Assembly (NCBI RefSeq): GCF_024700885.2
Contig: NZ_CP117016.1
DNA: 64,000 nt
Strand: one strand, 5' to 3'
From: Escherichia coli
GTDB taxonomy: Bacteria > Pseudomonadota > Gammaproteobacteria > Enterobacterales > Enterobacteriaceae
Under the pieces are notes generated by a model. The model searched no databases. It was not told the origin of the DNA and saw only the letters and a program-made list of their open reading frames with translations. Shown one piece after another: positions 30,979 to 44,095 of the stretch (positions are counted from its first letter, which is position 1; each line of letters begins with the position of its first letter). The position numbers and the translations under genes are program-made.

Positions 30979-32394
30979 TTACTGCTGATTTTCGCGTTCA
31001 GCAATAAAAGCCAGCGCTTTGTTGATACGCTCGATACTGCGGGTCTTACCAATTGCGTGAACGGTAACATCCAGTGCTGGAGACTGCCCCGCACCGGTTA
31101 CGGCGACACGCAGCGGCATACCAACTTTACCCATACCCACTTCCAGCTCATCCGCCGTCGCCTGAATAGCGTGATGAACGTTTTCAGCGGTCCAGTCAGT
31201 AATCGCAGTCAGTTTGTCACGAACCACTTCCAGCGGCTGACGCGCAACCGGACGCAGATGTTTTTTCGCGGCGTCGGCATCGAACTCAGTAAAATCTTCG
31301 TAGAAATAGCGGCAGCTCTGTGCCATCTCTTTCAGCGTCTTGCAGCGTTCACCCAGTAGTTTCACCAGATCAGCCAGCTGCGGGCCGTTACGGGTATCGA
31401 TATTTTCCTGCTCAATGTGCCACTGTAAGTGAGTAGCAACATACTCCGGCGGCAGCGCGTTAATGTAGTGATGGTTCAGCCACAGCAGCTTGTCGGTGTT
31501 GAACGCACTGGCAGATTTGCTGACGGCATTCAGAGTGAAGTATTTGATCATCTCTTCACGAGTGAAGATTTCCTGATCGCCGTGGGACCAGCCCAGACGC
31601 ACCAGATAGTTCAGCAGTGCTTCGGGCAAATAACCGTCATCACGATACTGCATTACGCTGACCGCCCCGTGACGTTTGGACAGTTTTTTACCGTCATCGC
31701 CGTTGATCATAGAAACGTGCGCGTAAACCGGTACCGGCGCTTTCAGGGCTTTAAGAATGTTGATCTGGCGTGGCGTGTTGTTGATATGGTCTTCGCCACG
31801 GATAACATGGGTGATTTCCATATCCCAGTCGTCAACCACCACACAGAAGTTATAGGTTGGGGAACCATCGGTACGGCGAATGATCAGATCATCCAGCTCC
31901 TGGTTGCTGAACTCGATCGGGCCACGGATCTGATCGTCAAAAACAACAGAACCTTCCTGCGGGTTAGCAAAACGTACAACGCACGGTTCATCATCAGCAT
32001 GATGCTCATGGCTGTGGCGGCAGCGACCGTCATAACGCGGCTTCTCACCTTTCGCCATTTGCTCTTCGCGCAGCGCTTCCAGGCGCTCTTTAGAGCAATA
32101 GCATTTATAAGCAGTGCCCTCTTCCAGCATCTGATCGATCACCGCGTTGTAGCGATCAAAACGTTTGGTCTGGTAGTACGGACCTTCATCCCACTCCAGG
32201 CTCAGCCAGTTCATGCCATCCATAATGGCTTCGATAGCTTCCGGCGTGGAACGCTCAAGATCGGTGTCTTCAATACGCAGCACGAACTCACCGCCGTGGT
32301 TACGTGCAAAAAGCCAGGAGTAAAGAGCAGTACGCGCGCCGCCAACGTGCAGATAGCCTGTTGGGCTTGGCGCGAAGCGAGTTTTGATTTTCAT
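30979..32394 (-). CDS. gltX: Glutamyl-tRNA synthetase
   Basis: 471-aa [34 protein letters not shown] with HVGG (HIGH-type) and KLSKR (KMSKS-type) class I motifs. Confidence 0.9.
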
Positions 32395-32652: not shown

Positions 32653-32728
32653 GGGTGATTAGCTCAGCTGGGAGAGCACCTCCCTTACAAGGAGGGGGTC
32701 GGCGGTTCGATCCCGTCATCACCCACCA
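32653..32728 (+). tRNA. valU: tRNA-Val (anticodon TAC)
   Basis: GGGTGATTAGCTCAGCTGGGAGAGCACCTCCCTTACAAGGAGGGGGTCGGCGGTTCGATCCCGTCATCACCCACCA. Confidence 0.9.
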
Positions 32729-32772
32729 ACTACTTTATGTAGTCTCCGCCGTGTAGCAAGAAATTGAGAAGT

Positions 32773-32848
32773 GGGTGATTAGCTCAGCTGGGAGAGCACC
32801 TCCCTTACAAGGAGGGGGTCGGCGGTTCGATCCCGTCATCACCCACCA
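32773..32848 (+). tRNA. valX: tRNA-Val (anticodon TAC)
   Basis: Identical 76-nt copy. Confidence 0.9.
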
Positions 32849-32894
32849 CTTTCTCGCCAGCTAAATTTCTTGTAAAAATGTGAAGTACCGAAGT

Positions 32895-32970
32895 GGGTGA
32901 TTAGCTCAGCTGGGAGAGCACCTCCCTTACAAGGAGGGGGTCGGCGGTTCGATCCCGTCATCACCCACCA
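32895..32970 (+). tRNA. valY: tRNA-Val (anticodon TAC)
   Basis: Identical 76-nt copy. Confidence 0.9.
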
Positions 32971-32974
32971 CTTC

Positions 32975-33050
32975 GGGTCGTTAGCTCAGTTGGTAGAGCA
33001 GTTGACTTTTAATCAATTGGTCGCAGGTTCGAATCCTGCACGACCCACCA
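32975..33050 (+). tRNA. lysV: tRNA-Lys (anticodon TTT)
   Basis: GGGTCGTTAGCTCAGTTGGTAGAGCAGTTGACTTTTAATCAATTGGTCGCAGGTTCGAATCCTGCACGACCCACCA, 4 bp after valY. Confidence 0.9.
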
Positions 33051-33054
33051 ATGT

Positions 33055-33081
33055 AAAAAAGCGCCCTAAAGGCGCTTTTTT
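33055..33081 (+). terminator. Rho-independent terminator of the tRNA operon
   Basis: aaaaaa-GCGCC-ctaaa-GGCGC-tttttt. Confidence 0.7.
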
Positions 33082-33082
33082 G

Positions 33083-33206
33083 CTATCTGCGATACTCAAA
33101 GATTCGAACCTGCAGCAGGTTCGAGTTGAGCGCAGCGAAACAACGGAGCCGCTCGCGGCGACGGCCCGAAGGGCGAGCGAAGCGAGTCATCCTGCACGAC
33201 CCACCA
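33083..33206. repeat. Scrambled tRNA-Lys-derived fragments ending in a second copy of the tRNA 3' end
   Basis: gattcgaacctgc (33101-33113) is the reverse complement of the lysV T-arm; gcaggttcga (33115-33124) is a direct T-arm fragment; atcctgcacgacccacca (33189-33206) duplicates lysV 33033-33050. Confidence 0.6.
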
Positions 33207-33213
33207 ACAATGT

Positions 33214-33240
33214 AAAAAAGCGCCCTAAAGGCGCTTTTTT
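33214..33240 (+). terminator. Second, duplicated copy of the tRNA-operon terminator
   Basis: Same aaaaaa-GCGCC-ctaaa-GGCGC-tttttt hairpin following the duplicated tRNA 3' end. Confidence 0.6.
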
Positions 33241-33273
33241 ACTATATGCGGTTTGTAAGATTGATTTTTCTTC

Positions 33274-33300
33274 TCAAGTTCCTTGTTCTTCTGCCGATAT
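33274..33300 (+). promoter_or_regulatory. Candidate sigma-28 (FliA) promoter upstream of the FlxA-like ORF
   Basis: TCAAGTTC-N11-GCCGATAT against the sigma-28 consensus TAAAGTTT-N11-GCCGATAA; about 30 nt upstream of the ATG. Confidence 0.45.
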
Positions 33301-33328
33301 TACCTCGTACAGTGACGAGGACTGAACA

Positions 33329-33670
33329 ATGGCCACTATCTCTTCAACTTCAATTCCTTCCATACAAACACAGAGTAGTAACAGGGCATCAGAAGGTAGC
33401 GATGTTGCTTCACAAATTGCGCGGATAAGTCAGCAAATCATCAAACTCACTCAACAAATTAAAGAGATTGCAGACACTAGCGGCAGTGCTGAAGACAAGC
33501 AAAAACAGGCCGAATTGATTCAGCAGCAAATCACCCTACTGGAAACACAACTGGCGCAGTTGCAGAGACAGCAGGCAGAAAAAGCGCAGGAGAAAGAGCA
33601 GCGTTTGTCTCTGAATGCATCCCTTCCAAATCCTGTTGAAAAAACGACTCATATCGATATCTATATCTGA
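33329..33670 (+). CDS. FlxA-like small coiled-coil protein (Gln/Glu-rich, conserved ...THIDIYI C-terminus)
   Basis: 113-aa ORF with SD GAGGA 7 nt upstream; heptad-like Q/L/E repeats ([29 protein letters not shown]); resemblance to FlxA is from memory, not alignment. Confidence 0.45.
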
Positions 33671-34587
33671 TACAGCGGATCCCCTTCCCGCCCAGCCATT
33701 AGCGCACGGCCCTGGTCTCGTACCACGTCCCATAACGCTTCAGCGGCGGTGGAAAGTGAACGGTTCTTCCTGCGCACCAGCATCAACTGGCGTTCAACCA
33801 CCGGCGTAATGCGCTTTACCACCAGTGGGCTACCTTCAGGCAATGGTAGCGCCAGTGCGGGAAGAATACTGATGCCGATGCCTGCGGCTACCATCGGGAA
33901 CAGCGTCGCCGGATGTCCAATCTCCTGCACAATATTCACCTGAATACCATTGCGCGCCAGCGCTGCGTCAATCAGCGGTCGGCTGCCTGACGCGTAATCC
34001 TGCAACACCAATTTCGCTCCCTGTAATGCCTGCCAGGGTACATAATCTTCCACGGCCAAAGCGCTATCGCGATGGCAAAGCAGAAAGAAAGGCTCGGAAA
34101 GAATCGCTTCACATTGCAGATCGCCCACTGGGCCTGGATCGATGACGATGCCAAAGTCGACATCTCCCTGACGAATACTTTCCATCACCCACTGCTGCGG
34201 ACGATCGTGCAGGACAAACTGAATATCTGGATAGCGGCGATGGCTTTCAGCAATGCATTGCGGAATAAGATGCGCGGAAATGGTCTGGCTGGCAGCGACC
34301 CGAACTTTTCCGCTCAGTTGTTGCCCCATACGCCCGGTATCGCGCAACGTGCTGTTAAGTTCATCCAGCAGTCGCTCAAGACGCAAAGCCAACTGCTGCC
34401 CTGCATCTGTAAGCACCACTTCACGCGTGGTTCTGTCCAGCAGGCGAACACCAGTATGATTTTCCAGCTCCTTCACACTGTGACTTACTGCCGACTGGCT
34501 CAGGCCGATACGCTCTCCTGCACGACTAAAACTTTTCTCCTGCGCTACTGTGACGAAAACCTTTAATTGTTTTAAAGAATAATTCAT
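33661..34587 (-). CDS. yfeR: LysR-family transcriptional regulator
   Basis: 308-aa ORF with N-terminal LysR HTH ([38 protein letters not shown]); divergent from yfeH. Confidence 0.8.
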
Positions 34588-44086: not shown

Positions 44087-44095
44087 TTCTTGCCG

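Follow-up and report, generated by a model that had tools for sequence, protein, structure and literature searches.

How does a small gene resembling FlxA, a prophage protein of Escherichia coli K-12 that is controlled by the flagellar sigma factor sigma-28 (FliA), come to lie downstream of a tRNA operon in other E. coli, behind what looks like a sigma-28 promoter of its own? The question is raised by a 64,000-nucleotide (nt) stretch of the E. coli contig NZ_CP117016.1 (assembly GCF_024700885.2), referred to here as the window. The answer we favor, with a probability of roughly 0.8, is that this is a genuine gene of the FlxA family (PF14282) with its own class-3-type sigma-28 promoter, and that it is an ancestral resident of the chromosome. 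The elements in question are the following:

33274..33281, + strand: -35 element TCAAGTTC of the predicted sigma-28 (FliA) promoter
33293..33300, + strand: -10 element GCCGATAT of the same promoter, 11-nt spacer from the -35 element, ending 28 nt before the ATG
33307..33328, + strand: predicted 5' untranslated region, thought to start about 7 nt past the -10 element and holding GAGGA
33329..33670, + strand: FlxA-like coding sequence of 113 amino acids (aa), ATG start, C-terminus ...THIDIYI

The Shine-Dalgarno sequence GAGGA occupies 33317-33321, 7 nt 5' of the ATG, and the start of the predicted leader is placed according to the usual geometry of sigma-28 promoters. A preliminary description had called attention to an open reading frame of this length with a good Shine-Dalgarno sequence, the THIDIYI end and sigma-28-like boxes some 30 nt upstream, and every one of these is present in the window. 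The resemblance to FlxA that it proposed is borne out by profile search: hmmscan matches residues 15-92 to Pfam PF14282 (FlxA) at an E-value of 6.2e-15 (55.6 bits), the remaining Pfam matches being weak coiled-coil noise, and BLASTP aligns the protein with K-12 FlxA at 45% identity over 74 aa (E 2e-13). A search of NCBIfam gave no family-specific model and weak coiled-coil noise alone. The gene was also said to be unannotated, which is mistaken, as the NCBI Prokaryotic Genome Annotation Pipeline and RefSeq list it under WP_000201404.1 as 'FlxA-like family protein', and in the Sakai genome it is named flxA (ECs_3279); no paper turned up in literature searches with ECs3279 or with guessed locus tags of BL21.

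The family is small. Where a word-indexed protein search gave just 8 relatives, HMMER, run exhaustively against 1.8 billion representatives, recovered 88 at E <= 1e-3. An alignment of 28 members displays an MTTI-type start, a variable stretch rich in S, T and G, a core rich in Q, E, K and L, and a G-x-N-x-P...IDIYI tail; I37, Q67, L71, Y112 and the terminal IDIYI are nearly invariant. The window protein itself (12.5 kDa, isoelectric point 5.35) contains 19 glutamines among its 113 residues, with 14 isoleucines, 14 serines and 9 glutamates. AlphaFold2 models it as a hairpin of two helices, residues 23-49 and 54-97, with predicted disorder at residues 1-21 (predicted local distance difference test, pLDDT, below 50) and 98-113, and a mean pLDDT of 68. 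Foldseek comparison of this model with the Protein Data Bank returned nothing at E <= 0.001; the top match, the type III secretion stalk protein CdsO (E 0.27), was followed by generic helical hairpins and was taken as uninformative. A sequence search of solved structures likewise gave designed coiled coils and compositional matches and no relative.

Because a match to the sigma-28 consensus is not significant by itself, the promoter was evaluated with a position weight matrix derived from 52 FliA sites mapped by chromatin immunoprecipitation sequencing (ChIP-seq; Table 2 of Fitzgerald et al. 2014, PMC4183435). Among the 127,946 positions of both strands of the window, the 28-mer in front of the FlxA-like gene has the best score, 18.8-19.0 bits, with the runner-up at 14.1-14.4 bits, and in a leave-one-out comparison it outscores 85% of the FliA sites from which the matrix was trained. 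In 300 first-order Markov simulations, such a score was expected 0.03 times per window and 2.3e-5 times per 100-nt upstream region. Further matches to the matrix, of 13.4-14.4 bits, occur at 44093 (- strand), 40862 (+ strand) and 15077 (- strand), in the score range of the weak intragenic FliA sites reported for K-12.

The promoter is also conserved well beyond E. coli, and in both strength and conservation the sigma-28-type promoter of the preliminary description holds up. Scanning one genome per species, in a search seeded with a 10-sequence alignment since the 28-sequence alignment was too diverse, located 62 loci in more than 15 genera of Enterobacteriaceae, including Pseudocitrobacter, Kluyvera, Pluralibacter, Enterobacter, Cedecea, Siccibacter, Lelliottia, Trabulsiella, Kosakonia, Atlantibacter, Citrobacter, Superficieibacter, Dryocola, Huaxiibacter and Phytobacter. 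When the 150 nt upstream of each FlxA-like gene were scored with the FliA matrix, 57 of the 62 loci had a site that scored 11.5-23 bits and whose end lay 26-36 nt short of the called ATG; correction of a mis-called or frameshifted start adds two more, for 59 of 62. One of the 62 has its sigma-28 boxes separated by a 12-nt spacer. Aligned on the motif, 58 distinct upstream regions share an invariant GCCGATA and a strongly conserved TCAAG, while the spacer and flanks are nearly free of information. Conserved boxes amid a diverged spacer and flanks make up what is, judged from these alignments, a classic phylogenetic footprint. The motif is specific to this position as well, with just 76 of the 864,120 positions over all loci reaching 13 bits or more, most of them promoters of FlxA-like genes, and even three distant homologues (33-36% identity), likewise located between gltX and ligA, have motifs 27-33 nt upstream.

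A hairpin with the potential to sequester the Shine-Dalgarno sequence (CCTCGT-acagtg-ACGAGG, 33303-33320; 6 bp, -8.6 kcal/mol, z -2.4 in the window) was examined and rejected as a conserved regulatory structure. Pseudocitrobacter shares the hairpin, but other genera do not conserve it (cross-genus mean z -0.43), and it is mostly gone if the RNA begins at the expected start (mean z -0.02), transcription probably starting downstream of its 5' arm.

The genomic surroundings bear on how the gene is transcribed and on where it came from:

30979-32394, - strand: gltX
32653-33050, + strand: tRNA operon valU-lysV, three tRNA-Val genes and one tRNA-Lys gene
33081..33206, + strand: RtT-like repeat between lysV and the promoter, outside the gene and listed for context (Rfam RF00391, 51.6 bits against a gathering score of 45; 'RtT sRNA' in RefSeq)
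33214..33240, + strand: terminator-like hairpin GCGCC-CTAAA-GGCGC with a T-run, the second copy of the lysV terminator
33264..33659, + strand: haplotype-specific segment of 396 bp, comprising the promoter and the open reading frame minus its last 11 nt (blastn breakpoints 33263/33660 against K-12)
33661..34587, - strand: yfeR, encoding a LysR-family regulator, convergent with the FlxA-like gene

Beyond yfeR the window continues with yfeH, ypeB and ligA. The first copy of the lysV terminator lies at about 33055-33081, as a second copy of the lysV 3' end, terminator hairpin included, occurs some 155 nt downstream (repeat 33033-33093 / 33189-33250). The two copies of the lysV tail flank the RtT-like repeat, and K-12 has the same structure, which is thus not specific to this haplotype. 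Several RefSeq chromosomes, that of strain 1190 among them, match a 651-bp query spanning the locus at 100% identity.

Could the sigma-28 motif nonetheless be inert, or a product of chance, with the gene transcribed by sigma-70 or by read-through from valU-lysV? A strong tRNA operon does lie 280 nt upstream on the same strand, and several results weigh against the promoter assignment. The window site matches 13 of the 16 positions of the consensus TAAAGTTT-N11-GCCGATAA with a spacer of 11 nt, its -35 element departing from TAAAGTTT at two positions; a consensus match with up to three mismatches was found once, against 0.51 expected per 64 kb, and at least one appeared in 42 of 100 shuffled sequences. 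Many sites bound by FliA in K-12 are without transcriptional effect (Fitzgerald et al., PMC4183435), and so FliA binding would not of itself prove regulation. Nor is the link between gene and promoter absolute, because two related loci, one in Kosakonia sp. S29 and the other in Phytobacter ursingii, lack a sigma-28 motif in the 150 nt upstream. The two motif-less genes (locus L037, 3902-4288, in Kosakonia and locus L065, 3875-4258, in Phytobacter) carry a poly-Ser insertion, encode 127-128 aa and have a TATAAT-like sequence about 85 nt before the ATG. Their upstream sequences suggest that the sigma-28 promoter was replaced in this lineage. Set against an inert motif, however, are a matrix score that is the highest in the window where 0.03 would be expected, boxes held at a fixed distance from the gene, in no fewer than 59 of the 62 loci, amid surroundings that are not conserved, two terminator hairpins between the tRNA operon and the promoter, and the lack of any sigma-70-like site in 33243-33328. 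The second copy of the lysV terminator, as its sequence and position indicate, insulates the sigma-28 promoter from tRNA-operon read-through. We therefore consider transcription by either of these other routes very improbable, and for the gene in the window we infer FliA-dependent transcription in vivo from the predicted start site.

As to the origin of the gene, the preliminary description had pictured an insertion at a tRNA-associated variable site. A rival view would be that the gene is a moron derived from a prophage or island and integrated beside tRNA-Lys, much as flxA of K-12 resides in the Qin prophage. The position directly 3' of lysV, the nearby duplication of the lysV 3' end and terminator, and the fact that the sole characterized member of the family is prophage-borne all lend themselves to such an account. 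Yet the 396-bp segment contains the promoter and the open reading frame only, with no integrase or phage gene, and the duplicated lysV tail lies upstream of this segment, as part of the RtT-like repeat structure that K-12 also possesses. A tblastn search with the window protein found no match in 50,697 phage records, among which K-12 FlxA does match a phage, and the phage family phrog_11044 matches the window protein at just 1.6e-9 compared with 1.8e-71 for K-12 FlxA. As for position, essentially all 62 loci share one slot: gltX, the tRNA-Val/Lys genes, sometimes xapR-xapB-xapA, the FlxA-like gene, yfeR, yfeH, ypeB and ligA. Divergence tells the same story, with the gene and its neighbor yfeR diverging in parallel (both are about 87% identical to Pseudocitrobacter faecalis), and since divergence from other genera parallels that of yfeR, the idea that E. 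coli had acquired the cassette horizontally was rejected. A phage moron is thus barely credible. Since the same slot is occupied in more than 15 genera, the gene is an ancestral chromosomal resident, not a tRNA-site insertion; it is the K-12 type of chromosome that differs, carrying xapRBA-yfeN instead.

Departures from the common layout were seen in individual genomes. In Trabulsiella odontotermitis strain 01 (L041, 3196-4802), the FlxA-like gene lies between tRNA-Val and tRNA-Lys, and yfeR and yfeH are not nearby; in Klebsiella sp. BIGb0407 (L055, 2040-3336), two tandem copies of the entire Val-Val-Val-Lys tRNA cluster precede the gene.

The arrangement at the other end of the gene raises a different prospect. 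The FlxA-like stop codon and the yfeR 3' end overlap by 10 nt (33661-33670), and a terminator scan of the locus detected no + strand terminator between the two genes. With a tail-to-tail overlap and no terminator, sigma-28 transcripts should run antisense into yfeR. It is conceivable that this antisense RNA is the main output of the promoter, coupling yfeR and yfeH to motility, and that the small protein is secondary. Nearly all of the 62 loci have the tail-to-tail arrangement; wherever yfeR is present, the two genes overlap or lie no more than about 30 nt apart. Five loci without yfeR (L019, L021, L028, L031 and L056) nevertheless keep both gene and promoter, and the protein speaks against this reading as well: its terminal motifs are conserved, and the ratio of non-synonymous to synonymous substitution rates (dN/dS) relative to Pseudocitrobacter faecalis is 0.13-0.18, a value that places the FlxA-like protein under purifying selection between genera. 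An antisense role as the primary output consequently appears improbable, and a protein-coding gene of the sigma-28 class remains the reading we prefer.

Within E. coli the picture is less uniform, as anticipated by the suggestion that the gene is strain-variable. The species is dimorphic at the locus: 1317 of 5426 complete genomes have the FlxA-like segment and 4090 have yfeN, which together account for nearly all. Carriers include O157:H7 and the B/BL21 lineage. At the same position, K-12 holds 4.39 kb of xapR-xapB-xapA-yfeN (L005, 3540-7929), and E. coli genomes almost never combine the xanthosine-utilization genes with the FlxA-like gene. In Enterobacter, Citrobacter, Lelliottia and Atlantibacter, by contrast, the genes coexist, with xapRBA followed by the FlxA-like gene. 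A third, degraded haplotype occurs in E. coli MLI104K2 (L003, 2412-3154), where a frameshifted fragment of xapB precedes a fragment of the FlxA-like gene. Because several genera have both and MLI104K2 keeps remnants of both, the ancestral arrangement probably held xapRBA together with the FlxA-like gene.

It is here that the reading of a functional flagellar gene meets its strongest competitor, namely that the gene, intact as it is and functional in other genera, is being lost from E. coli under relaxed selection, to the point that promoter and reading frame may have ceased to count in many strains. Several observations on E. coli alleles weigh toward that view. About 76% of complete genomes are without the gene, and MLI104K2 retains a mere remnant, 79-88% identical to the window, beside its xapB pseudogene, albeit in one genome only. 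Differences between E. coli alleles are mostly non-synonymous, with dN/dS of 0.46-0.65 at 8-10 substitutions per pair, and pairwise comparison of Sakai, BL21 and KSC64 yields 0 synonymous and 3-5 non-synonymous differences. Sakai (L002) carries D110G, giving IGIYI in place of the near-invariant IDIYI, and BL21(DE3) (L073) and KSC64 (L074) have a G-to-A change in the -10 box, ACCGATAT rather than GCCGATAT. Part of the fli region is likewise missing from the B lineage, in which the FlxA-like gene would be silent. Taken together, the non-synonymous alleles, D110G, the -10 change and the loss from three quarters of genomes suggest weak constraint on the gene within E. coli, on counts that are small. 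On the other side, those substitution counts are tiny, the open reading frame is full length in 1307 genomes, and the window allele retains both GCCGATAT and IDIYI. Moreover, -10 boxes of the ACCGATAA type are functional at ycgR and fliDST (PMC4183435). Ongoing loss is, on balance, unlikely although to be taken seriously, and it is compatible with the gene being a genuine sigma-28-driven member of its family.

We regard the open reading frame and its family, purifying selection between genera, the strength and conservation of the promoter, synteny and the dimorphism of E. coli as established. The gene was already annotated, the family already known and its type member a known FliA target; the new points are that a promoter is assigned to this group of orthologues, that it is deeply conserved and syntenic, and that K-12 is recognized as having the phage-borne paralogue alone. 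These elements can be assembled into a plausible course of events. The ancestral chromosomal FlxA gene of the Enterobacteriaceae has its fixed place with yfeR on one side and the valU-lysV tRNA operon, or xapRBA, on the other. Where a flagellated cell possesses the gene, FlhDC would turn on fliA, and completion of the hook-basal body would allow export of FlgM and so free FliA-RNA polymerase. The latter would bind TCAAGTTC-N11-GCCGATAT and begin an mRNA with a short leader, about 22 nt before the ATG, such that the FlxA-like protein would be made with class-3 timing, alongside flagellin, chemotaxis proteins, YcgR and PdeH.

The practical gain is modest, the gene being an ordinary, though little described, probable member of the flagellar regulon. 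The flagellar regulon was mapped in K-12, which is without the locus, and the resulting lists therefore omit a probable class-3 gene of about one quarter of E. coli genomes. FlxA is usually labeled a Qin prophage protein, when the family is in fact chromosomal, at one position, with its sigma-28 promoter kept for as far as it can be traced. Because position and promoter have been retained throughout that traceable history, a real, selected role in flagellar biology can be argued for.

What such a role might be is a more speculative matter. The suggestion we prefer is that the flagellar type III export apparatus secretes FlxA proteins as late substrates, as it does FlgM; we put it forward as a conjecture that may well prove wrong. 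Broadened to the family as a whole, the proposal would be that FlxA is an unrecognized ancient core member of the sigma-28 regulon in Enterobacterales, seated at the gltX-ligA position, that its product is a small late export substrate, a second FlgM-like secreted protein with some extracellular or regulatory role, and that K-12 FlxA is a phage-captured copy with a host-type flagellar promoter. This too is doubtful and to be held tentatively. There are nonetheless hints in both sequence and proteomic data. Residues 1-30 of the FlxA-like protein comprise 20 S, T, N, Q, G or A and 3 charged residues, a makeup similar, in composition only, to the N-termini of FliD, FliC and FlgK. K-12 FlxA has been quantified in culture supernatant, where the other most-enriched E. 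coli proteins were FlgK, FliD, FliC, FlgL and FlgM, although the cytoplasmic protein CheY on the same list speaks against export (PMC6391000). In a study of cells grown at 42 °C, a temperature that disables the export apparatus and brings class-3 promoters down to 2%, flxA was singled out for opposite changes in protein and mRNA (PMC6551532). This discordance would fit an export substrate retained in the cell, provided that it runs in the direction we surmise. The data behind the export idea are circumstantial and concern the K-12 paralogue, which counts against extending it to the gene in the window. The alternative is a cytoplasmic function, with the helical hairpin acting as a regulator or adaptor. 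Were the export idea correct, one of the best-studied secretion systems would gain a new substrate, and a 113-aa protein behind a single promoter would offer a simple handle for pursuing it.

Comparison with known flagellar systems helps to place both protein and promoter. Like the FlxA-like protein, with its isoelectric point of 5.35, FlgM is small and acidic (isoelectric point 5.30), and expression of both is driven by sigma-28, as a prediction in the case of the FlxA-like protein. The likeness does not extend to sequence: hhalign detected no homology to FlgM or to the chaperone FlgN, and a relationship of the FlxA family to either was rejected at probabilities of 0.04% (FlgM) and 0.7% (FlgN). 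The N-terminus, predicted to be disordered, rich in S, T, N and Q and poor in charge, resembles in these respects that of FliD (MASISSLGVGSG). For the promoter, the closest parallels are those of modA and flgKL, both bound by FliA in ChIP experiments (PMC4183435). The modA boxes are TCAACTTC...GCCGATATT and those of flgKL TCAAGTCC...GCCGATAAT, each with a TCAAG-type -35 as in the window. Compared in full (TCAAGTTCCTTGTTCTTCTGCCGATATT in the window, TCAACTTCCTGCTTTTCCTGCCGATATT at modA and TCAAGTCCGGCGGGTCGCTGCCGATAAT at flgKL), the three sites have identical spacing and an identical -10 core. The modA and flgKL sites were mapped in K-12, which does not have the window locus, whereas the window promoter is predicted from sequence.

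The most direct comparison is with FlxA of K-12 itself (b1566, Qin prophage), a 110-aa protein of the same Pfam family, PF14282, as the 113-aa protein of the window. Both have a S/T-rich N-terminus, a helical core rich in Q, E, K and L, and an IDIY[IV] end. The promoters follow the same plan, with that of K-12 flxA reading TAAAGATT-N11-GCCGATAG and lying 23 nt from the ATG compared with 28 nt in the window; the spacer is likewise 11 nt, and the -35 box contains TAAAG in K-12 flxA where the window has TCAAG. Ide and Kutsukake are said to have found flxA dispensable for motility. Papers that cite Ide and Kutsukake (1997) describe it as poorly characterized. Its regulation is clearer: flxA has a FliA ChIP peak, and its expression value goes from 280 to 2 upon deletion of fliA (PMC4183435), in keeping with a 28-fold drop without fliA in an earlier array study. 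It is thus among the most FliA-dependent genes known, and this dependence is established by experiment, whereas that of the window gene is deduced from its promoter. The two also differ in residence. K-12 FlxA is identical in phage PhiR42_1, and of 1200 E. coli genomes with the K-12-type gene, 1197 match it at 99% identity or more, compared with 95-100% among nearly all of the 1317 E. coli carriers of the window gene. K-12 carries just this phage-borne paralogue, having lost the chromosomal gene. The window gene, in contrast, is chromosomal and syntenic across genera; a prophage location, familiar as it is from K-12, is no requirement for membership of the FlxA family.

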